Of a stretch of DNA of 64,000 nucleotides, positions 7,942 to 18,534 are shown piece after piece. Source of the DNA: a virus (taxonomy: Duplodnaviria > Heunggongvirae > Uroviricota > Caudoviricetes); the IMG/VR virus record IMGVR_UViG_3300033405_000002, positions 179,595 through 243,594 of that record; one strand, given 5' to 3'. Under the pieces are notes generated by a model. That model searched no databases and had not been told where the DNA came from. It saw only the letters and a list, made by a program, of their open reading frames with translations. Position 1 is the stretch's first letter; each line of letters begins with the position of its first letter. Position numbers and translations under genes: made by a program.

Positions 7942-7984
7942 GTAGAAGAAGATTGATGGTCGTGCGTTTTACAGAAGACCGTAA

Positions 7985-8248
7985 GACAATAGGCACCAGA
8001 CACGTTATCGGACGCGGGTTCGACTCCCGCCGCCTCCACCATAAAGATTTGGTGGTACTCCCACAGCAGGGCTTATGGGGGCGTCACGGCTTCGACGGTG
8101 AATGATGCGAGGATAGCGCCAACGACCCGATGATCGGTTCCCAGCGTTAATAGGGGGCAAAAAACAGTAAACGCCAACGCTCCAAAGGCAATGGCTGCTC
8201 ATGCTTAATGAGCCTGACCCGGTGGGTCAGTTCCTCAACACCACAAAA
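7985..8248 (+). ncRNA. ssrA: tmRNA (ssrA), circularly permuted two-piece type. The acceptor piece ends with ...GGACGCGGGTTCGACTCCCGCCGCCTCCACCA at 8041. The coding piece starts with GGGGGCG at 8077
   Basis: 3' T-arm and acceptor nearly identical to E. coli ssrA; coding-piece 5' GGGGGCGTCACGGCTTCGACGG resembles the tmRNA 5' end; the 5' strand GGGGGCG pairs with the 3' strand CGCCTCC and gives a G3:U70 pair; candidate tag ORF GCC AAC GCT CCA AAG GCA ATG GCT GCT CAT GCT TAA TGA at 8173-8211; helix-5-like hairpin follows. Confidence 0.75.
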
Positions 8249-8250
8249 GA

Positions 8251-8273
8251 ACCCGCGCAAGCGGGCTTTTTTG
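8251..8273 (+). terminator. rho-independent terminator after the tmRNA
   Basis: CCCGCGCAAGCGGGC hairpin followed by a T6 run. Confidence 0.7.
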
Positions 8274-8292
8274 TTTGTGGTAGAATCCTGTT

Positions 8293-8490
8293 ATGAACAC
8301 CACACTTGGTCCTTGGCTGCGCGGCGATTATCTCGACGCGGGCATTCTCGCGCTTCTCATCATCTGGTTTACTCTTGACCGTCTCAATTGCTATTTCTTC
8401 GATCTGTGGCAGGTGTTCCGCCGCTGGCTTTACATCCTAAACATTTTCACTTCGCGCCCGTGGGACGAGAATGGCAGGAGACCGCTGTAG
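8293..8490 (+). CDS. small hydrophobic protein
   Basis: 65-aa ORF; ends with TAG, which overlaps the GTG of the next gene. Confidence 0.4.
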   Translation: MNTTLGPWLRGDYLDAGILALLIIWFTLDRLNCYFFDLWQVFRRWLYILNIFTSRPWDENGRRPL

Positions 8491-9509: not shown

Positions 9510-9796
9510 ATTTCTGTCAATACATTGTCGATTTTCACATGGAGCCGGGGGAAGACGGTGACCCGATTTTCTGCGATAAGCCCGCCCCGATCAAATGGGA
9601 TGGCTGCTGGTTTTGCGCCGATCATTACGATGAGGTCGTGGCGAGCGCGGCCAAGCCGAAGGGCGGTTACATCTATCGGCAAGGCATGGCGTCCATGCCG
9701 GGACTTGCCTTCCCAGACGAGAAGCTGTTCATTGGCGTAGATTTTGACGAGCTTAAAAACGCTGTATTTTCATTCTGTTACGGCTCGAAAAAATAA
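9506..9796 (+). CDS. Cys-rich small protein, paralog B (CWFCADHYDE motif)
   Basis: ATGA overlap with the upstream gene; tandem paralog. Confidence 0.5.
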   Translation: MNFCQYIVDFHMEPGEDGDPIFCDKPAPIKWDGCWFCADHYDEVVASAAKPKGGYIYRQGMASMPGLAFPDEKLFIGVDFDELKNAVFSFCYGSKK

Positions 9797-9809
9797 TTTT
9801 TCGCAAATC

Positions 9810-9839
9810 TGGACAAATTTTCCGAATTCGCAGTATAAT
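9810..9839 (+). promoter_or_regulatory. sigma70-type promoter TGGACA-N18-TATAAT with a conserved upstream AAAAATAATTTTCGCAAATC element
   Basis: near-identical ~50-bp copy at 16227-16278. Confidence 0.6.
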
Positions 9840-9858
9840 AGCAGCAGGAGAAGCAAAC

Positions 9859-10320
9859 ATGAAGCTCCAACTCGAAGGTCTCTAGGTTCATCCTTACTTC
9901 TACGTCTTTGTGCGACAGGACATTTCGCTCGCGCAACAGATAGTGCAGTCCAATCACGCCACATTTGAAGTTGCTCGTCGTCTCCCAACAGACTATAGCG
10001 AAGTTCCGCACATGGTTCTTATCGGTGTGCCCGATAAGGCTGCGCTCTTCCGCGTGGTCGAAAAACTCAACAAAAATGACATAGGACATCAGGTCTTCTA
10101 CGAGCCTGATGACAACATGGGTCTGTCCGCCGTGGCAACCGTGCCACTCGAACAGAGCCAGCGCCGCTGCCTGTCCAATTACGCGATCTGGCGCGATACG
10201 ACCAAGGACAAGCAGCAACGCGAAATGCTGGCGGAACGCCTCGCCGGACGCGCCGTGCCGCCTGATGCGTGGCTCGACTGCGGAACACCATATCTCAGTG
10301 AAGGGGCAGCCAATGACTAA
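9859..10320 (+). CDS. PTH2-family-like peptidyl-tRNA hydrolase. It has an in-frame TAG at 9883-9885 after the leader MKLQLEGL, so it needs amber readthrough. Alternatively it is a GTG-9910 start or a pseudogene
   Basis: AGGAG RBS then ATG 9859; TAG at codon 9; downstream frame 'VHPYFYVFVRQDISLAQQIVQSNHATFEV...HMVLIGVPDKAALF' resembles the PTH2 beta1-alpha1 core (VVR.D....AQ..HA); there is no ATG, GTG or TTG between the TAG and GTG 9910. Confidence 0.5.
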
Positions 10321-11790: not shown

Positions 11791-11794
11791 GTTT

Positions 11795-11954
11795 GCGCGG
11801 GTAGCTCAGTGGGAAGTTGGAAGACGGGTTGATCTCCGTTACGACAGCTTCATGAGCGCCATCGGTGAGACAGGGGGAATGAGAGGGACGCTTCTTTGGA
11901 AGCCTGTCAATAAACGTGAAAGCAAGGGTGGTTCGATTCCATCCCCGCGCACCA
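11795..11954 (+). tRNA. tRNA-like gene, aberrant at 160 nt. It has canonical acceptor 5' and D-stem 5' ends (GCGCGGGTAGCTCAG) and a canonical T-arm, acceptor 3' strand and CCA, but about 90 nt are inserted between them
   Basis: acceptor GCGCGGG pairs with CCCGCGC; T-loop TTCGATT; paralog of the tRNA-like gene at 12432; no canonical D-stem 3' or anticodon arm identified. Confidence 0.35.
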
Positions 11955-11955
11955 A

Positions 11956-12028
11956 GGGCGGTTAGCTCAGTGAAAGAGCGCTCGGCTTGTCCGAGAGGTC
12001 GGGGGTTCAAGTCCTTCACCGCCCACCA
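11956..12028 (+). tRNA. tRNA-like gene with a shortened anticodon arm (5-bp stem CTCGG/CCGAG closed by a 5-nt loop CTTGT)
   Basis: acceptor GGGCGGT/ACCGCCC; D-arm GCTC...GAGC; T-loop TTCAAGT; encoded CCA. Confidence 0.4.
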
Positions 12029-12033
12029 AGTTA

Positions 12034-12155
12034 TGCAGGATAAAGGCTCAGGCGAAGATAGGTCGCACTTATCAGACCAAAAGCTGAAGTTGGCAACACG
12101 GCGCTTGCCCTCATCGTGAGATGAGAAACCGGGTTCGACTCCCGGCCCTGCACCA
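12034..12155 (+). tRNA. tRNA-like gene, long at about 120 nt. It has a T-arm and acceptor with a hairpin variable arm (CTCATCGTGAGATGAG), but no canonical D-arm or anticodon arm
   Basis: T-arm CCGGG-TTCGACT-CCCGG; 5' TGCAGGA pairs with 3' CCCTGCA; candidate anticodon hairpin has an 8-nt loop. Confidence 0.3.
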
Positions 12156-12289
12156 AATGTAAAACGGGCACACGCTGTTAGGGAACCGCGCCGTAAATGT
12201 TCTGTTAGAAAGAGCAGGACACTAGGCAGCGGACAGCAGCTTGCGGAGCCAAGTACGGCAAACTGAAAACGCGGGAAATACCATGGTGA

Positions 12290-12344
12290 GTACCGCGCAA
12301 GTAATCCGCATTCGCCGGAGGTTCGATTCCTCAGGTGCCCACCA
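12290..12344 (+). tRNA. tRNA 3'-half-like element (T-arm, acceptor 3' strand and CCA); no convincing 5' half found
   Basis: GGAGG-TTCGATT-CCTCA then GGTGCCC-A-CCA. Confidence 0.25.
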
Positions 12345-12354
12345 AGTTTGTTGC

Positions 12355-12430
12355 GCCTGATTAGCTCAGCGCAGAGCACCGGACTTTTAGTCCGGGGGTC
12401 GGCTGGTTCAACTCCGGTCATCAGGCTCCA
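12355..12430 (+). tRNA. tRNA-Lys(UUU)
   Basis: acceptor GCCTGAT/ATCAGGC; anticodon arm CCGGA-CTTTTAG-TCCGG; T-loop TTCAACT; CCA encoded. Confidence 0.6.
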
Positions 12431-12431
12431 T

Positions 12432-12505
12432 ACGCGGGTAGCTCAGAGAAAGAGCATCCGGCGCAAGCTGGAAGGTCGGTGGTTTAATTCCATCCCCGCG
12501 TGCCA
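12432..12505 (+). tRNA. tRNA-like gene in which the anticodon arm is replaced by a 6-bp hairpin capped by a GCAA (GNRA) tetraloop
   Basis: acceptor ACGCGGG/CCCGCGT; D-arm GCTC-AGAGAAA-GAGC; T-loop TTTAATT; TCCGGC-GCAA-GCTGGA. Confidence 0.4.
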
Positions 12506-12506
12506 C

Positions 12507-12541
12507 GGGGCTGTGGCGTTAGTAGCGTCGCAGCCCCACCA
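12507..12541 (+). other. acceptor-stem minihelix-like element: a 7-bp stem, a 17-nt loop, then A-CCA
   Basis: GGGGCTG...CAGCCCC-A-CCA immediately after the tRNA-like gene. Confidence 0.3.
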
Positions 12542-12607
12542 AGTTCATGAGTTTGTTGGAGTTGTATCGGTAGCCAAAGATGGTTGGTTTTCCGTATACT
12601 TGGGTAT

Positions 12608-12684
12608 GCGCCCGTAACGCTTAGCGGCTAAAGCTGTGGTCTCTAAAACCGTGATCGGGGGTTCGAGTCCCTCCGGGCGCACCA
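12608..12684 (+). tRNA. tRNA with anticodon CUA (amber suppressor type). It has two extra nt between the acceptor and the D-stem
   Basis: acceptor GCGCCCG/CGGGCGC; anticodon arm GTGGT-CTCTAAA-ACCGT with U33, CUA at 12643-12645 and A37; T-loop TTCGAGT; CCA encoded. Confidence 0.5.
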
Positions 12685-12713
12685 ACCTTCAGTATTAACC
12701 CCCAGCACAAGAT

Positions 12714-12817
12714 GCCCCGGTAGCTCAATAGCAGAGCAGCGGTCTCTAAAACCGTCCTCACTAGAGCAGCGGATGTTAATCCGTTGGTTACGGGTTCAAG
12801 TCCCGTCCGGGGTTCCA
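12714..12817 (+). tRNA. tRNA with anticodon CUA (amber suppressor type) and an about 34-nt variable arm
   Basis: canonical D-arm GCTC-AATAGCA-GAGC; anticodon arm GCGGT-CTCTAAA-ACCGT with CUA at 12746-12748; variable-arm hairpin CGGAT-GTTA-ATCCG; T-loop TTCAAGT; acceptor GCCCCGG/CCGGGGT. Confidence 0.55.
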
Positions 12818-12818
12818 C

Positions 12819-12893
12819 ACTCCTGTAGCTCAACGTGGCTAGAGCGCGGTCCCTAAAATCGCAGATGCGAGTTCGATGCTCGCCGGGAGTGCC
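12819..12893 (+). tRNA. tRNA with anticodon CUA (amber suppressor type, C33 variant)
   Basis: acceptor ACTCCTG/CGGGAGT; D-arm GCTC-AACGTGGCTA-GAGC; anticodon arm GCGGT-CCCTAAA-ATCGC with CUA at 12853-12855; T-arm GCGAG-TTCGATG-CTCGC; CCA. Confidence 0.5.
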
Positions 12894-12897
12894 AACG

Positions 12898-14403: not shown

Positions 14404-15323
14404 ATGTCACAGCGGGACGCTTAAATGAGACTTTACGCCGTCATTTTGACGGGTATGGTCTCCCTTTCTCTTTTTCAACCAACGTAATCCCCGAAAACGA
14501 TCCAACCACTCTCTTCATTAGCGCGGGGATGCAACCACTCAAACCAAGGTTTCAGACGCCGGACGGCACAGGCTACGGCAATGTGCAGTATTGTGTGCGC
14601 ACGAACGACATTGACGAAGTGGGCGATGGCACGCATCTGACTTTCTTCCAGATGATCGGCAGCTTCGGCTTTGGCACCTACAACTACGAGAGCCACGTGC
14701 AGATGTGGTCGGACATCATGACCGACCTGAAGATTCCTATTGACCACGTGGACGTTCACCCAGACTCCCAGCTAGATTATCTGTGGCTTCAGCGCGGCTA
14801 CGGCGTGCGCATGAACCCGGAGTGTGTTTGGTCGGACGGCAATGTCGGCGGTTATTGCTGCGAACTATTCACGCCGGACGGACTCGAAGTAGGCAATCTG
14901 GTGAACCCATTGCAGCACTCCGTGGACGTAGGATTCGGCTACGAACGAATCTTGCAGATCATGGAGGGCAAATCTCGCGTGGATGAGACGAGCCTTTTCA
15001 ACCAGTTTCTCGATCCGATTTCTCGCGACCATTTTCGCACGCTCAACGTGTTTCATGAGCAAGGGATTGTTCCGGGGAACAAAGGGCGGAATTACGTCTG
15101 CCGCCGCCTGATTCGCCGCTTTATCCGGTTGAATCCAAACGGTTTAGAGTGTTCGTTCATGGATTGGATGGATGATGAACGAATCCGCATGGAGAATTCG
15201 ATCCGCGACGGGCGCAAGCATTGGCGCAGGAATAAACGCAAACTCCCACCAATACCGAACTCGTTCTATTGGGAGACTTTCGGCATCATGCCCGATGAGA
15301 TGGTATTAGTGAAAGAGGAATAG
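14404..15323 (+). CDS. alanyl-tRNA synthetase catalytic-domain fragment (mini-AlaRS). It is split into an SD-ATG leader MSQRDA-TAA (14404-14424) and a -1 frame (14385-15323); it needs a -1 frameshift, or it is a pseudogene or carries a sequencing indel
   Basis: frame-0 region 'ENDPTTLFISAGM...QYCVR...THLTFFQMIGSFGFGTYNYESH...VDVGFGYERILQI...GNKGRNYVCRRLIRRFIRL' matches the E. coli AlaRS motifs HNDPTLLFTNAGM, QRCVR, HHTFFEMLGNFSFGDYFK, IDTGMGLERI and GRGYVLRRIIRRA; AlaRS-like homology extends 48 codons upstream of the first ATG (14529) with no start codon in that frame; the AAGGAGGA RBS serves ATG 14404 in the +1 frame; ends with TAG. Confidence 0.6.
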
Positions 15324-16068: not shown

Positions 16069-16229
16069 TGACAGTAAGAGAATTCATCATGGAACTCAGT
16101 GACTACGATCCTGACGCGGAGATCGTAGTCAAAGGCTCATGCCCGAAGAATCCCGGTGAAGAAGTGGATTCCTACGATGCGGAGCCTTTTACCATAGCTG
16201 GCGATGGGAAGGTCACCATCTACTCCTGA
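16068..16229 (+). CDS. small protein whose N-terminus is paralogous to the 10953 gene
   Basis: ATG overlaps the TGA (TGATG). Confidence 0.4.
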   Translation: MTVREFIMELSDYDPDAEIVVKGSCPKNPGEEVDSYDAEPFTIAGDGKVTIYS

Positions 16230-16248
16230 AAAATAATTTTCGCAAGTC

Positions 16249-16278
16249 TGGACAAATTCCCAGACTTTGCAGTATACT
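16249..16278 (+). promoter_or_regulatory. sigma70-type promoter TGGACA-N18-TATACT with the conserved upstream AAAAATAATTTTCGCAAGTC element
   Basis: paralog of 9786-9839. Confidence 0.6.
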
Positions 16279-16343
16279 ATGTAGGTAGCACACAGAATGT
16301 CCCGTCAGGGCGTTGCCGGACGATACACGGCGAGATTGAAATT

Positions 16344-16433
16344 ATGAAGCAGACACAGACAACGCGAACTACAACGACCCAACGAATTATTACGGGCGTG
16401 CGCGTTGACGTGTCTGAGGGCTGGGACGATTAA
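16344..16433 (+). CDS. leader peptide ORF MKQTQTTRTTTTQRIITGVRVDVSEGWDD, rich in Thr, Gln and Ile
   Basis: 8 Thr, 3 Gln and 2 Ile codons in the first 17 codons; followed by a terminator, then an array containing only Ile, Thr and Gln tRNAs. Confidence 0.45.
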   Translation: MKQTQTTRTTTTQRIITGVRVDVSEGWDD

Positions 16434-16460
16434 ATAACCCAGTAAAATCAGCAAGTTAAC

Positions 16461-16491
16461 GAGCCGCCAGAAATGGCGGCTTTTTTATTTT
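16461..16491 (+). terminator. rho-independent terminator, a candidate attenuator, between the leader ORF and tRNA array 2
   Basis: GCCGCC-AGAAAT-GGCGGC followed by TTTTTTATTTT. Confidence 0.65.
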
Positions 16492-16565
16492 GGCGAGTAG
16501 CTCAGTGGGAGAGCACAGTCCTGATAAGACTGGGGTCGAGAGTTCAATCCTCTCCTCGCCAACCA
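16491..16565 (+). tRNA. tRNA-Ile(GAU)
   Basis: canonical cloverleaf; anticodon loop CTGATAA; CCA encoded. Confidence 0.7.
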
Positions 16566-16583
16566 AGTTTTGAGATGTGAGAT

Positions 16584-16657
16584 GCGCCCTTCGTCTAACG
16601 GCAAGGCCCACGCCCGATTAGCGTGAGATCGCGGTTCGAATCCGTGAGGGCGTACCA
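16584..16657 (+). tRNA. tRNA with anticodon GAU (Ile-like) and an atypical loop (C33, U37)
   Basis: anticodon arm CACGC-CCGATTA-GCGTG; T-loop TTCGAAT; G1:U72. Confidence 0.45.
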
Positions 16658-16663
16658 AATTTT

Positions 16664-16867
16664 ATGAAGAGTGACTGGCGAAAACGATACGAAGACGCGG
16701 AGAGTGCCTTCCATAAGCTGAAGAGCATGACGAAGCGCGTTCCCGCCAGCGCATGGACGCCGGAGTATCGCGAACTCGCGAACGCGATCCACACGTTAGG
16801 AAGAGAATCTTTCTACGTGGAATCAGATGATTTTAAGCCTGAAGATCGAGAAGATTGGGAAGGCTAG
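16664..16867 (+). CDS. small hypothetical protein between tRNAs
   Basis: 67 aa; ends with TAG. Confidence 0.4.
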   Translation: MKSDWRKRYEDAESAFHKLKSMTKRVPASAWTPEYRELANAIHTLGRESFYVESDDFKPEDREDWEG

Positions 16868-16871
16868 TTAG

Positions 16872-16954
16872 GCCGATGTGGCTCAGCGGCGACAGCAGCG
16901 GTTCCGTAAACCGCCACACAAACATCGGGGGTTCGAGTCCCTCCATCGGCTCCA
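16872..16954 (+). tRNA. tRNA-Thr(CGU) with a 3-bp D-stem and a 12-nt unpaired variable region (C33)
   Basis: anticodon arm GCGGT-TCCGTAA-ACCGC; paralog of 17830-17911. Confidence 0.5.
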
Positions 16955-16960
16955 AGTTTT

Positions 16961-17035
16961 GCCACGGTAACACAACGGTGGTGTACTCCCTTGGTAAGGG
17001 AGAGGGTGTGGGTTCGATTCCCACCCGTGGCTCCA
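16961..17035 (+). tRNA. tRNA-Thr(GGU)
   Basis: fully canonical cloverleaf; anticodon loop TTGGTAA. Confidence 0.75.
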
Positions 17036-17039
17036 AGTT

Positions 17040-17375
17040 ATGTTTGGGCGAACTACAGATTGCGGCGGCAAGCACGAGTACGAGAAAACAACTTGTCAGC
17101 GCATGGTTGAATGGGAGTTGGTTGACCATGAAACCGGAATCGTGCTGGCGCGTAAGTTCGATCCGTGCCCGCGTCACCAGCCGGGACAGGCAGCGGTCAA
17201 TCTGGTAGATGAGCGCACGCTTCAGGATCAAGCGGTAAAGTTTCTGGTTGCGCACCCAGAGTTGTTCCCGCGCTGTGAGAAGTGCTGGGCGTATTTGACA
17301 CCGAAGAAAGCGCATGTTTGTGCGAAGGCGTCCAAGTGGGAACGGAAAGAGCCGCGTAAAAACGCGAAGCATTGA
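17040..17375 (+). CDS. small zinc-binding-like protein
   Basis: 111 aa with several CxxC or CxxH pairs. Confidence 0.45.
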   Translation: MFGRTTDCGGKHEYEKTTCQRMVEWELVDHETGIVLARKFDPCPRHQPGQAAVNLVDERTLQDQAVKFLVAHPELFPRCEKCWAYLTPKKAHVCAKASKWERKEPRKNAKH

Positions 17376-17388
17376 GTATTTGATTGCT

Positions 17389-17556
17389 ATGAAATGTCAA
17401 GAACAACACGAGCATGGCGGGTGCGGTTTGGAACTGACGTTCCCGCAGCGGTATCCATTGGATGTTACGGTTCCCGGCCCAACGCAACAGTTGGGTGAAG
17501 GTGGACAGCCGGGGACGAGCGAAGATCAATATCCAATGAACGGAACTTGCTGCTAA
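17389..17556 (+). CDS. small hypothetical protein
   Basis: MKCQEQHEHGGCG... Confidence 0.3.
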   Translation: MKCQEQHEHGGCGLELTFPQRYPLDVTVPGPTQQLGEGGQPGTSEDQYPMNGTCC

Positions 17557-17569
17557 CAGACCCCCTTGT

Positions 17570-17824
17570 ATGGGGGCACTCAGCGACGAGCAGACCGACC
17601 TTCTCTACCAGAACCAGAAGGTACTGGACGCTCGTAGAGCCTTCCTCAAAAAGCTTGCGGAAGGAATGAGACGCGGCGATCTGGAGATGATCGCGGAAGG
17701 AAACGCTCTCAAGAAAGTGTACGAAACGCTCTTTGCGGAGCATCTGAAGTGGGTGATTGAAAACCCACCGGAGCCAAAGGCGAAACCGATGGTGTCATTC
17801 AACGGCTTCGCACGCAGAGCGTAA
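17570..17824 (+). CDS. small hypothetical protein
   Basis: 84 aa. Confidence 0.45.
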   Translation: MGALSDEQTDLLYQNQKVLDARRAFLKKLAEGMRRGDLEMIAEGNALKKVYETLFAEHLKWVIENPPEPKAKPMVSFNGFARRA

Positions 17825-17829
17825 ATTAG

Positions 17830-17911
17830 GCCAACGTGGCACAGCGGCGACTGCAACGGTTTTGTAAACCGTCATCCCACATCGGAGGTTCGAGTCCTCT
17901 CGTTGGCTCCA
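17830..17911 (+). tRNA. tRNA-Thr(UGU) with a long unpaired variable region
   Basis: anticodon arm ACGGT-TTTGTAA-ACCGT; T-loop TTCGAGT. Confidence 0.55.
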
Positions 17912-17924
17912 AGTTTAGATTCAT

Positions 17925-17999
17925 TGCCCTGTCGTTTAATGGCTAGGACGGTTGCCTTTGAAGCAACTTATCGGGGTTCGAGTCCCTGCGGGGCAGCCA
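17925..17999 (+). tRNA. tRNA-Gln(UUG)
   Basis: anticodon arm GTTGC-CTTTGAA-GCAAC; T-loop TTCGAGT. Confidence 0.6.
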
Positions 18000-18003
18000 A
18001 GAT

Positions 18004-18089
18004 TGGGAGATGGTGGAAAAGTGTAAACACGCCAGTCTTTGAAACTGGTGCCGATAGGCTTGCAGGTTCGAGTCCTGCTCTCCCAGCCA
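18004..18089 (+). tRNA. tRNA-Gln(UUG), second copy, with a 12-nt variable region
   Basis: anticodon arm CCAGT-CTTTGAA-ACTGG; T-arm GCAGG-TTCGAGT-CCTGC. Confidence 0.55.
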
Positions 18090-18111
18090 ATTCACTACCC
18101 ATCTCTTTTGT

Positions 18112-18534
18112 ATGGACATCCTTCACAAGTTCCTTCTAGGCGGGGAAATCTACCTCGCAGCTTCAGCCGGACTGGTAGTCGTCAGCACGATCTTCCGTGG
18201 TATTCATCACCTTCTTGGCACATCGAACTCCCGCCCAATGACGCCGGAGAACATCCAAGCGGCTATGGCACGGTCTAACGACGAAAGCCGTATCCATCGC
18301 TGGCTGGACGCTTTTGACATCTTCCTAAACGTTACCTTCATGAATGGACAGAACGATGAAACCATGTCTGCCCACTGCTGGCGTGCGGCTCAAGCCGGAC
18401 ATCTGTGGGGCAAAGCGATGAACTGGTGGTTGGAAGGATTCCAGCCAAACCACGGCTACCAAGCTGCCTGCGGCGATCTCCAGCGTGCGCTGAATCGTAT
18501 CGCCATCGAGAAAAAGGCTTTGGGAATTCAGTAG
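18112..18534 (+). CDS. hypothetical protein with an N-terminal TM helix
   Basis: 140 aa; ends with TAG. Confidence 0.45.
   Translation: MDILHKFLLGGEIYLAASAGLVVVSTIFRGIHHLLGTSNSRPMTPENIQAAMARSNDESRIHRWLDAFDIFLNVTFMNGQNDETMSAHCWRAAQAGHLWGKAMNWWLEGFQPNHGYQAACGDLQRALNRIAIEKKALGIQ

Follow-up and report, generated by a model that had tools for sequence, protein, structure and literature searches.

The DNA analysed here (the window) is a stretch of 64,000 nucleotides (nt) from a virus of the class Caudoviricetes (IMG/VR record IMGVR_UViG_3300033405_000002, positions 179,595 to 243,594), and the element described is a short leader lying directly upstream of a set of isoleucine, threonine and glutamine tRNA genes. 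All features given below between 16229 and 18089 are on the + strand. A sequence-only reading of this DNA had listed a promoter copy, a 29-codon open reading frame (ORF), a rho-independent terminator and a tRNA array, and each of them was found in place. The putative sigma-70-type promoter (16229-16278) consists of an A/T-rich upstream element (16229-16248), a -35 box TGGACA (16249-16254), an 18-nt gap and a -10 box TATACT (16273-16278), and 16249-16278 matches the consensus at 10 of 12 positions. Calling it a copy was correct, because a second one (51 nt, 80% identical) lies at 9790-9840. Transcription is predicted to start at about 16285, and the leader ATG (16344) follows about 60 nt further on. 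The 5' untranslated region (16285-16343) folds into two small hairpins and has, 9 nt 5' of the ATG, a weak GAGA motif rich in purines; the Shine-Dalgarno (SD)-antiSD pairing of the leader was -3.6 kcal/mol, compared with an average of -3.9 for the genes of the window and -2.1 for random positions.

The leader ORF (16344-16433; 29 codons plus UAA) encodes MKQTQTTRTTTTQRIITGVRVDVSEGWDD. Its putative regulatory codon run (codons 3-17, 16350-16394) is made up of 8 Thr (ACA, ACG, ACU, ACC), 3 Gln (CAG, CAA), 2 Ile (AUU) and 2 Arg (CGA) codons. The predicted intrinsic terminator (16461-16490) reads GAGCCGCCA-GAAA-UGGCGGCUU and then UUUUUUAUUUU (-16.4 kcal/mol): a GC-rich stem of 9 base pairs (bp; 16461-16469/16474-16482) carries the GAAA loop and is followed by TTTTTTATTTT. 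The terminator directly adjoins tRNA-Ile, which starts at 16491, and no other promoter-like sites were found on the + strand from 16279 to 18520. As terminator and tRNA-Ile abut and leave no room for a promoter, the tRNA array must be transcribed through the terminator.

Seven tRNA genes were called in agreement by ARAGORN and Rfam between 16491 and 18089, as follows: tRNA-Ile (GAU; 16491-16565, 66.1 bits), which begins on the last U of the terminator tail; a tRNA called as Ile (GAU; 16584-16657, 44.6 bits), with the non-canonical anticodon loop CCGAUUA; tRNA-Thr (CGU; 16872-16954), with C33 and a 12-nt unpaired variable loop; tRNA-Thr (GGU; 16961-17035, 65.9 bits); tRNA-Thr (UGU; 17830-17911), with an 11-nt variable loop; tRNA-Gln (UUG; 17925-17999); and a further tRNA-Gln (UUG; 18004-18089) with a long type-II-like variable arm. 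The array is not contiguous: ORFs of 67 amino acids (aa; 16664-16867, no Pfam match), 111 aa (17040-17375, Cys-rich) and 84 aa (17570-17824, with a homologue at 69% identity in the relative L069) sit among its tRNAs. The array had been said to encode no other identities, which is right for 16491-18089 and wrong for the window, since a second tRNA cluster lies 4 kilobases (kb) upstream.

In the loop CCGAUUA, C33 and U37 replace the usual U33 and purine 37. This loop is conserved in L008 (6018-6092) and L017 (1886-1960) while the anticodon stem co-varies, and the second 'Ile' tRNA is therefore a maintained non-canonical tRNA. The tRNA-Thr genes at 16872-16954 and 17830-17911 have an unpaired variable loop of 11-12 nt and a 3-bp D stem. 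Members of this family were located at L006 6001-6081 and in L008-L020; the window shares the family with the 642-kb phage LR756502.1 and with 13 IMG/VR contigs that differ widely in GC content. The acceptor end of the tRNA-Gln at 18004-18089 is of Gln type (U1-A72, G2-C71, G3-C70, G73).

The leader codons were then compared with the tRNAs downstream. Thirteen of the 16 codons from 2 to 17 are readable by the array tRNAs, against a background of 15.4% of the 18,312 codons in the long ORFs of the window. Not one of 17,496 16-codon windows taken from those long ORFs reached the same fraction (0.81), and among short ATG ORFs in six frames it was reached by 1/252, the leader itself, with a runner-up at 0.375. 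The agreement between leader composition and downstream tRNAs, from which the sequence-only reading had started, is thus borne out far beyond chance. Its remark that all three Thr anticodons are needed was overstated, because UGU and GGU together would cover ACN. Arg CGA codons (16362-16364 and 16383-16385) sit in the Thr run, and a T-R-[I/T]-T-T-T motif is kept in the Thr/Gln/Ile leaders of subfamily A (one of the groups of relatives described below); the conserved CGA may be a built-in slow codon or a component of an RNA helix (the 1:2 helix, see below).

A coincidental origin of the match was considered, for example as a by-product of an A/C-rich hairpin arm: the leader segment 16351-16381 is an A/C-rich helix arm, and DNA rich in A and C is prone to code for Thr, Gln, Pro, His and Asn. 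However, the ACN periodicity, as read from the sequence, appears in one reading frame only, none of the 17,496 windows matches as well, and matches are repeated across 29 diverged units as well as in a second leader class of other composition. Chance is effectively refuted by these observations.

For the identification of relatives, a 246-aa protein flanking the locus was searched in IMG/VR and in a set of 5.8 billion proteins, and only identical copies were found; the contigs carrying it were 100% identical to the window and hence uninformative. Because the flanking proteins had no diverged homologues, two other anchors were used. With the unusual tRNA-Thr pattern, two IMG/VR contigs with the same Ile-Ile-Thr...Gln array were obtained, and in both a homologous short ORF and terminator lie upstream of a DUF6915 gene, itself 5' of the array. 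The DUF6915 protein was then searched in IMG/VR and JGI metagenomes, which gave about 90 loci. A scan with the exact promoter pattern was discarded, as its single match, in the unrelated AT-rich phage L005, was due to chance.

The unit of leader ORF and terminator was found in 29 distinct versions in related metagenomic phages, so that the leader is conserved, as an attenuator would lead one to expect, and its frame, length (20-32 codons) and composition are kept across all 29. Leaders rich in Thr, Gln and Ile account for 21 of the 29 distinct peptides (e.g. MRLTSQTRITTTTQTSGGGIVVSGTEFD, MNQTSTTRITTTQCTTTGVRVSVSDKWPE, MMNITMPHTQTQTQIWAGGGACSG and MKQTLQTRTTTTQRITTRVRVGVSEGMDPV), have a promoter 5' of them, occur on contigs of 44 to 59% GC, and are followed by Ile-Ile-Thr-Thr-Thr-Gln-Gln arrays in 17/17 units with array data. 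The order of their residues varies and the composition is kept (HTQTQTQI, HTQTTTQI, TSQTRITTTTQT), and Thr codons are used evenly (ACA 24, ACG 25, ACT 16, ACC 18). The terminator core GCCGCC...GGCGGC is kept in nearly all members, the exceptions being L027 (ACCGCC...GGCGGT) and L062 (GCCGCT). A DUF6915 gene stands between terminator and first tRNA in most relatives; in the window and L299, terminator and tRNA-Ile are immediate neighbours.

Irrespective of leader class, nearly all relatives have the DUF6915 gene inside the operon (e.g. L021 3001-3387 and L054 3001-3249); the window lacks it. Its closest cellular homologue (65% identity) is in an Acidobacteriaceae isolate, not beside tRNAs, which gives a weak hint to the host, and no DUF6915 homologue adjoining tRNAs was found in bacterial genomes. 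Metagenomes of peat, bog and forest soil are the source of the relatives, whose contigs measure up to 463 kb. At about 600-920 of L034, an HNH-endonuclease-like ORF lies directly 5' of DUF6915, in the place that the leader has in other members. The public contig behind L060 (OCZT010145384.1) opens with an Illumina adapter (L060 1-45), a sign of an assembly artefact.

A second kind of array was found among these relatives, with the order Tyr, Leu-GAG, Leu-CAG, (Ser), a DUF6915 paralogue, Leu-GAG, Leu-UAG and Leu-CAA. It is preceded by leaders rich in Leu, Tyr and Ser, of which eight distinct peptides were recovered (e.g. MNRTYLSLALLYTLLSG..., MNRTYLSLALLYTLLSGAGSGVSNG, MNRLALSLTLYSLLSGLHGGAFIG and MNNITLSPSLSLLAYYLSLPRGGVFNG), with a ninth in L361; the loci of this class are L054, L064, L073, L074, L076, L316, L353, L356 and L361. 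All of the 8 such leaders with array data are followed by Tyr/Leu(/Ser) arrays. These units have the same type of promoter and the same GCCGCC..GGCGGC terminator as the window, and the terminator adjoins tRNA-Tyr; the L064 promoter reads TTGACAAATTCCCAGACTACGGTATTAT, and the 16-mer GACAAATTCCCAGACT is common to L064 and the window. Their Leu codons are CTA (6), CTG (13), TTG (5) and CTT (9), with no CTC or TTA, and correspond to the UAG, CAG, CAA and GAG anticodons of the downstream tRNAs. The Leu/Tyr/Ser leaders precede the three bacterial tRNA families of type II (long variable arm), so that arrays appear to be grouped by the structural class of their tRNAs in addition to the amino acid.

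The codons of the leader therefore switch with the identity of the tRNAs behind it. When leader class was tabulated against array class for 25 distinct leaders, the counts were 17/0/0/8 (Fisher p = 9e-7, the units being phylogenetically related), and the mean codon match was 0.56 to the leader's own array and 0.06 to that of the other class. The composition match thus holds in the homologous loci, with 17/17 Thr/Gln/Ile and 8/8 Leu/Tyr/Ser leaders class-matched. As a control, about 230 unrelated phage loci with the same terminator motif were taken from the matches listed in two scans. The first scan contained 2 units followed by tRNAs within 1.5 kb, and no such leader was seen in their upstream sequence, which was read by eye rather than through called ORFs. 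In the second, 8/8 units with downstream tRNAs among the matches listed were members of this family with class-matched leaders. A few extra members were gained in this way, and no third leader class was found among the matches listed in both scans.

The leader RNA was examined for alternative pairings. Segment 1 (16351-16381), within the Thr/Gln codons, pairs with segment 2 (GGGCGUGCGCGUUGACGUGUC; 16394-16414) as a candidate anti-antiterminator (the 1:2 helix). The alternative partner of segment 2 is segment 3 (AGCAAGUUAACGAGCCGCC; 16450-16468), which comprises spacer and terminator 5' arm, and this duplex is the candidate antiterminator, with GGCG-U-GC-G-CGUUGAC in segment 2 pairing with GUUAACG-A-GC-CGCC in segment 3. 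It has a predicted energy of -21.6 kcal/mol, was equalled by 0/200 shuffles, and takes in the GCCGCC of the terminator 5' arm; a pairing of the kind on which the attenuator proposal depended does exist. The whole antiterminator hairpin (16390-16470) is predicted at -35.5 kcal/mol, against -16.4 for the terminator, and nested in it is a small hairpin (16420-16443) with the leader stop UAA (16431-16433) in its loop. In the window, the 1:2 helix has -23.0 kcal/mol (2/200 shuffles as good), and the fold of the leader has a z-score of -5.4.

The candidate antiterminator is conserved in the relatives. In 25/25 units, the ORF 3' part is predicted to form a duplex (-16.6 to -27.7 kcal/mol) with spacer sequence plus CCGCC from the terminator arm, beginning at codon 14-21 and ending on the terminator 5' arm; for 20 of the 25, between 0 and 4 of 200 shuffles did as well. 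Folded alone, the region forms a single long hairpin in 24/24 units folded (of the 29; -23.5 to -38.3 kcal/mol). An equivalent of the stop-codon hairpin, built of other stem sequences, was seen in most of the relatives folded and was not resolved in a few. RNAalifold recovered the antiterminator (17 pairs) in the MPHTQTQ subfamily. On a MAFFT alignment of the whole family it gave no structure, the helix registers being different, and the subfamily-A alignment was poor; a covariance model built from the MPHTQTQ subfamily matched within that subfamily only. Column-based covariation across the family was thus not obtainable, and alignment-free shuffle and swap tests were used instead. When the conserved CCGCC core was left out, the pairing of cognate flanks was stronger than that of swapped flanks by 2.4 kcal/mol (0/20,000 permutations). 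The stems diverge and co-vary: CGUUGAC/GUUAACG of the window corresponds to GUGAGC/GUUCAC in L023, with a double change from U-A to G-C.

These results bear on a rival explanation, in which the promoter, the short ORF and the terminator together are a small gene in their own right, for a micro-protein or a small RNA (sRNA) of about 205 nt, and the tRNAs owe their expression to leakage through the terminator or to transcription from another site. The unit does possess a promoter and a strong terminator, and a stretch 5' of the terminator is A/U-rich, as at sRNA 3' ends; the C-terminal part of the peptide is conserved at the amino-acid level within subfamilies (e.g. GGGACSG, VS.G..D), and the Leu-rich version of the leader resembles a hydrophobic peptide. 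A small gene of this sort would, however, leave unexplained that the leader switches from Thr/Gln/Ile to Leu/Tyr/Ser exactly with the downstream tRNA identities, that its N-terminal part keeps composition and not order, and that the conserved C-terminal codons are the strand pairing with the terminator 5' arm. Nor does the abutment of terminator and tRNA-Ile leave space for a promoter. This explanation was judged improbable.

The effect of ribosome position was modelled with a kinetic score: the transcript was cut before the terminator 3' arm, and the pairedness of the 5' arm was scored for each position of the ribosome, with E. coli thrL as a control. Without a ribosome, the 5' arm was paired at 0.48 in the window and 0.32 in thrL. 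With the ribosome on early codons, the score rose to 0.77-0.78 in the window (codons 1-13; 0.70 at codon 2) and to 0.75 in thrL (codons 1-14). On later codons up to the stop it was 0.48-0.65 in the window (from codon 14) and 0.05-0.12 in thrL (0.52 at codon 15).

Taken together, the alternative pairing, the conserved unit and the tracking of tRNA identity by leader composition support the attenuator reading first put forward for this locus. We consider it likely that the element is a ribosome-mediated (leader-peptide) transcription attenuator, which gates a phage tRNA operon by the decoding speed of the codons that the operon serves. We infer from the features above that the leader is translated and the terminator functional, as well as the coupling kinetics and the physiological trigger. 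Host RNA polymerase would initiate at the sigma-70-type promoter and transcribe the leader, and the 29-codon ORF would be translated by a ribosome. When Thr, Gln and perhaps Ile tRNAs are plentiful, the ribosome would cover segment 2 (16394-16414) on its way to the stop codon. Segment 2, being under the ribosome, would therefore be unable to pair with segment 3; the terminator (16461-16490) would then form, and transcription would end one base short of tRNA-Ile. When ACN or CAR codons are decoded slowly, the ribosome would stall on segment 1 (16351-16381) and leave segment 2 free. Once 16450-16468 has been transcribed, the free segment 2 would pair with it and capture the terminator 5' arm, and the polymerase would read on and transcribe the tRNA genes for Ile, Thr and Gln together with the three small ORFs. 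If translation is absent, the 1:2 helix would form and transcription would terminate by default.

Several points weigh against attenuation of this kind. The evidence is entirely computational. The leaders have conserved Arg (CGA), Pro-His and Ser (AGC) codons for which the arrays have no matching tRNA. There are two leader classes only, so that the leader-array association rests on two evolutionary lineages; it is best read as two lineages in which each match is individually improbable. SD complementarity of the leaders is intermediate: the family mean is -3.4 kcal/mol, between the values for genes (-3.9) and for random positions (-2.1), and some members have almost none. Only the window and L023 have a significant 1:2 helix. 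The kinetic score discriminated weakly, with a poor showing for the E. coli controls leuL and hisL and with several phage units that were not above shuffles. In the model of the window, the Ile codons 15 and 16 are too near segment 2 for antitermination, and a ribosome stalled there may cover part of segment 2 and block the antiterminator rather than allow it. Finally, when the leader was folded at equilibrium with the ribosome masked, the terminator was >88% formed at every ribosome position. Equilibrium folding is uninformative on this question, because the E. coli thrL control also keeps its terminator formed; attenuation is kinetic.

The strength of the terminator, never removed in equilibrium folding, would also suit a fixed throttle or timing gate, overridden by a phage antitermination factor or a phage RNA polymerase, with an ORF that senses nothing. 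Large phages often use antitermination or their own polymerases. However, no such factor was identified, and a gate of this type offers no reason for the conservation of the ORF, for the match of codons to tRNAs or for a conserved, co-varying antiterminator with its 5' strand within the ORF. We give it little credence.

The leader was also compared with known RNA families. Rfam Thr_leader (RF00506) had no match in the window even at E <= 10, and the matches of the window leader to Phe_leader and Trp_leader were sub-threshold and driven by the terminator. The T-box riboswitch covariance model matched neither the window nor the loci of the relatives, in which Rfam matches were to tRNA only. These searches bear on the idea that the leader RNA senses tRNAs directly, in the manner of a T-box, through codon-anticodon contacts and without translation. 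The leader codons do match the downstream tRNAs, and T-box leaders too alternate between terminator and antiterminator. Against this stand the absence of a match to the T-box or another Rfam leader family at threshold, the conserved ATG and frame with an in-frame stop in a conserved hairpin, the use of many codons and several tRNAs instead of one specifier, and a layout that is that of translated leaders. Direct sensing is accordingly very unlikely.

Under leader-peptide attenuation, the repetition of the match in related phages implies that the phage probably makes these tRNAs only when they are short. Most likely, the Ile/Thr/Gln tRNA operon is transcribed when those codons decode slowly, and the sister module acts likewise for Tyr, Leu and Ser. 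The product of read-through would be the limiting reagent itself, which would make the element a negative-feedback regulator of tRNA supply. We lean, with less assurance, towards a wider arrangement in which large soil and peat phages run modular 'tRNA-stats', each array being autoregulated by a leader peptide written in the codons of its own tRNAs. Two such modules have been found to date, Thr/Gln/Ile and Leu/Tyr/Ser. If this is true, tRNA-stats would measure decoding capacity codon by codon during infection and turn tRNA genes on only when host tRNAs limit, whether through phage codon demand, host tRNA turnover or tRNA-targeting defence nucleases; that defence-associated tRNA cleavage is sensed is speculation.

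To our knowledge, the control of phage-encoded tRNA expression is largely unknown, common as such tRNAs are. The element, if it works as proposed, would be the first case found in which the molecule sensed, a specific aminoacyl-tRNA pool, is also the regulated product, and it would amount to a minimal, virus-borne closed-loop controller of decoding capacity. It makes testable whether phage tRNAs offset codon-usage mismatch, host tRNA degradation or anticodon-nuclease defences, and the codon choice of the leader would reveal which tRNAs the phage monitors. The Thr/Gln/Ile and Leu/Tyr/Ser modules, built on one promoter-terminator chassis, are a natural specificity control, and the pair offers compact, codon-programmable sensors for synthetic biology. 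Annotators of metagenomic phage genomes would do well not to write off short ORFs beside tRNA arrays as noise.

Other features of the window are as follows. Downstream of the second promoter copy, the region 9790-10320 holds an AGGAG ribosome-binding site and an 8-codon ORF, MKLQLEGL, ending in TAG, which is in frame with 144 more codons (no Pfam match); this layout could reflect amber read-through by phage suppressors, or a GTG start downstream. A peptidyl-tRNA-hydrolase-like identity considered for the ORF after this promoter had no Pfam support. The upstream tRNA cluster (11792-12894) contains tRNA-Gln (UUG), tRNA-Lys (UUU), an odd tRNA whose 'anticodon' has 2 bases (12432-12505) and three amber-suppressor tRNAs (CUA; 12608-12684, 12714-12814 and 12819-12894), of which the second (101 nt, with a very long variable region) was detected by Rfam only. 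Separated tRNA-like halves in this cluster (a 5' half at about 11795 and a T arm at 11927-11958, with a further T arm at 12312-12349) suggest intron-bearing tRNAs. Global reassignment of TAG, prompted by the three CUA tRNAs, was rejected, as the ORF statistics of the window give it no support: TAG as sense adds no more coding length than TAA as sense, and 11/54 long + strand ORFs terminate in TAG. A permuted transfer-messenger RNA (tmRNA) gene lies at 7949-8299 (Rfam match 7981-8208, RF04321, 69.6 bits; tag peptide ANAPKAMAAHA according to ARAGORN). The 264-aa ORF at 14529-15323, beside the tRNA region, matches the N-terminal part only of the class II alanyl-tRNA synthetase profile (PF01411, E = 3e-22) and is a putative synthetase fragment or editing-like protein. 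The window also encodes a phage-type helicase, NAMPT and many tRNAs. It belongs to a large, phage-like contig; the gene for the 111-aa protein of the array was located on a JGI metagenome contig of 243,654 bp.

Among known systems, the nearest likeness is to E. coli thrL, in which a short promoter-proximal ORF with a run of Thr/Ile codons and then Gly codons precedes an intrinsic terminator. In both, the region of Gly codons (segment 2) mimics the terminator 3' arm and pairs with the 5' arm. The scores by ribosome position ran in a similar way in the folding model, which was weak on the leuL and hisL controls. The target of thrL is a set of amino-acid biosynthesis genes, whereas that of the phage element is tRNA genes; the phage element also adds Gln codons, is phage-borne, falls outside the Thr_leader family and has its stop codon in a hairpin nested inside a much longer antiterminator. 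Leader-peptide control of the translation apparatus through cognate codons is represented by the E. coli pheST attenuator (pheM leader) and other synthetase-gene attenuators. The pheST system differs in that its target is a synthetase protein gene and not tRNAs, that it is cellular and that a single amino acid is sensed. E. coli pheU/pheV were considered as tRNA genes with an attenuator-like leader and are no precedent, as they have plain promoters in the genome. T-box riboswitches monitor tRNA status and switch the terminator and antiterminator of translation-related genes; unlike the phage element, they bind uncharged tRNA directly, are untranslated, and have a single specifier codon and conserved T-box motifs.

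The tRNA clusters of other phages (T4, T5 and huge phages of Al-Shayeb et al. such as LR756502.1) are likewise arrays with small ORFs interspersed. LR756502.1 shares a related long-variable-loop tRNA-Thr with the window; the array examined there differs in mixing many identities, and in about 500 nt read upstream of it no cognate-rich leader ORF abuts the array, with a terminator-like hairpin about 250 nt upstream. The leader unit was not found in deposited phages. Leader-peptide attenuation of tRNA genes, in phage or cell, was not reported in the full-text literature searched, which is absence of evidence only, as most subscription journals were outside its coverage. Leader-peptide attenuation as such is known; what is novel here is that the regulated tRNAs would be those that are sensed, which would close the loop between sensor and product.

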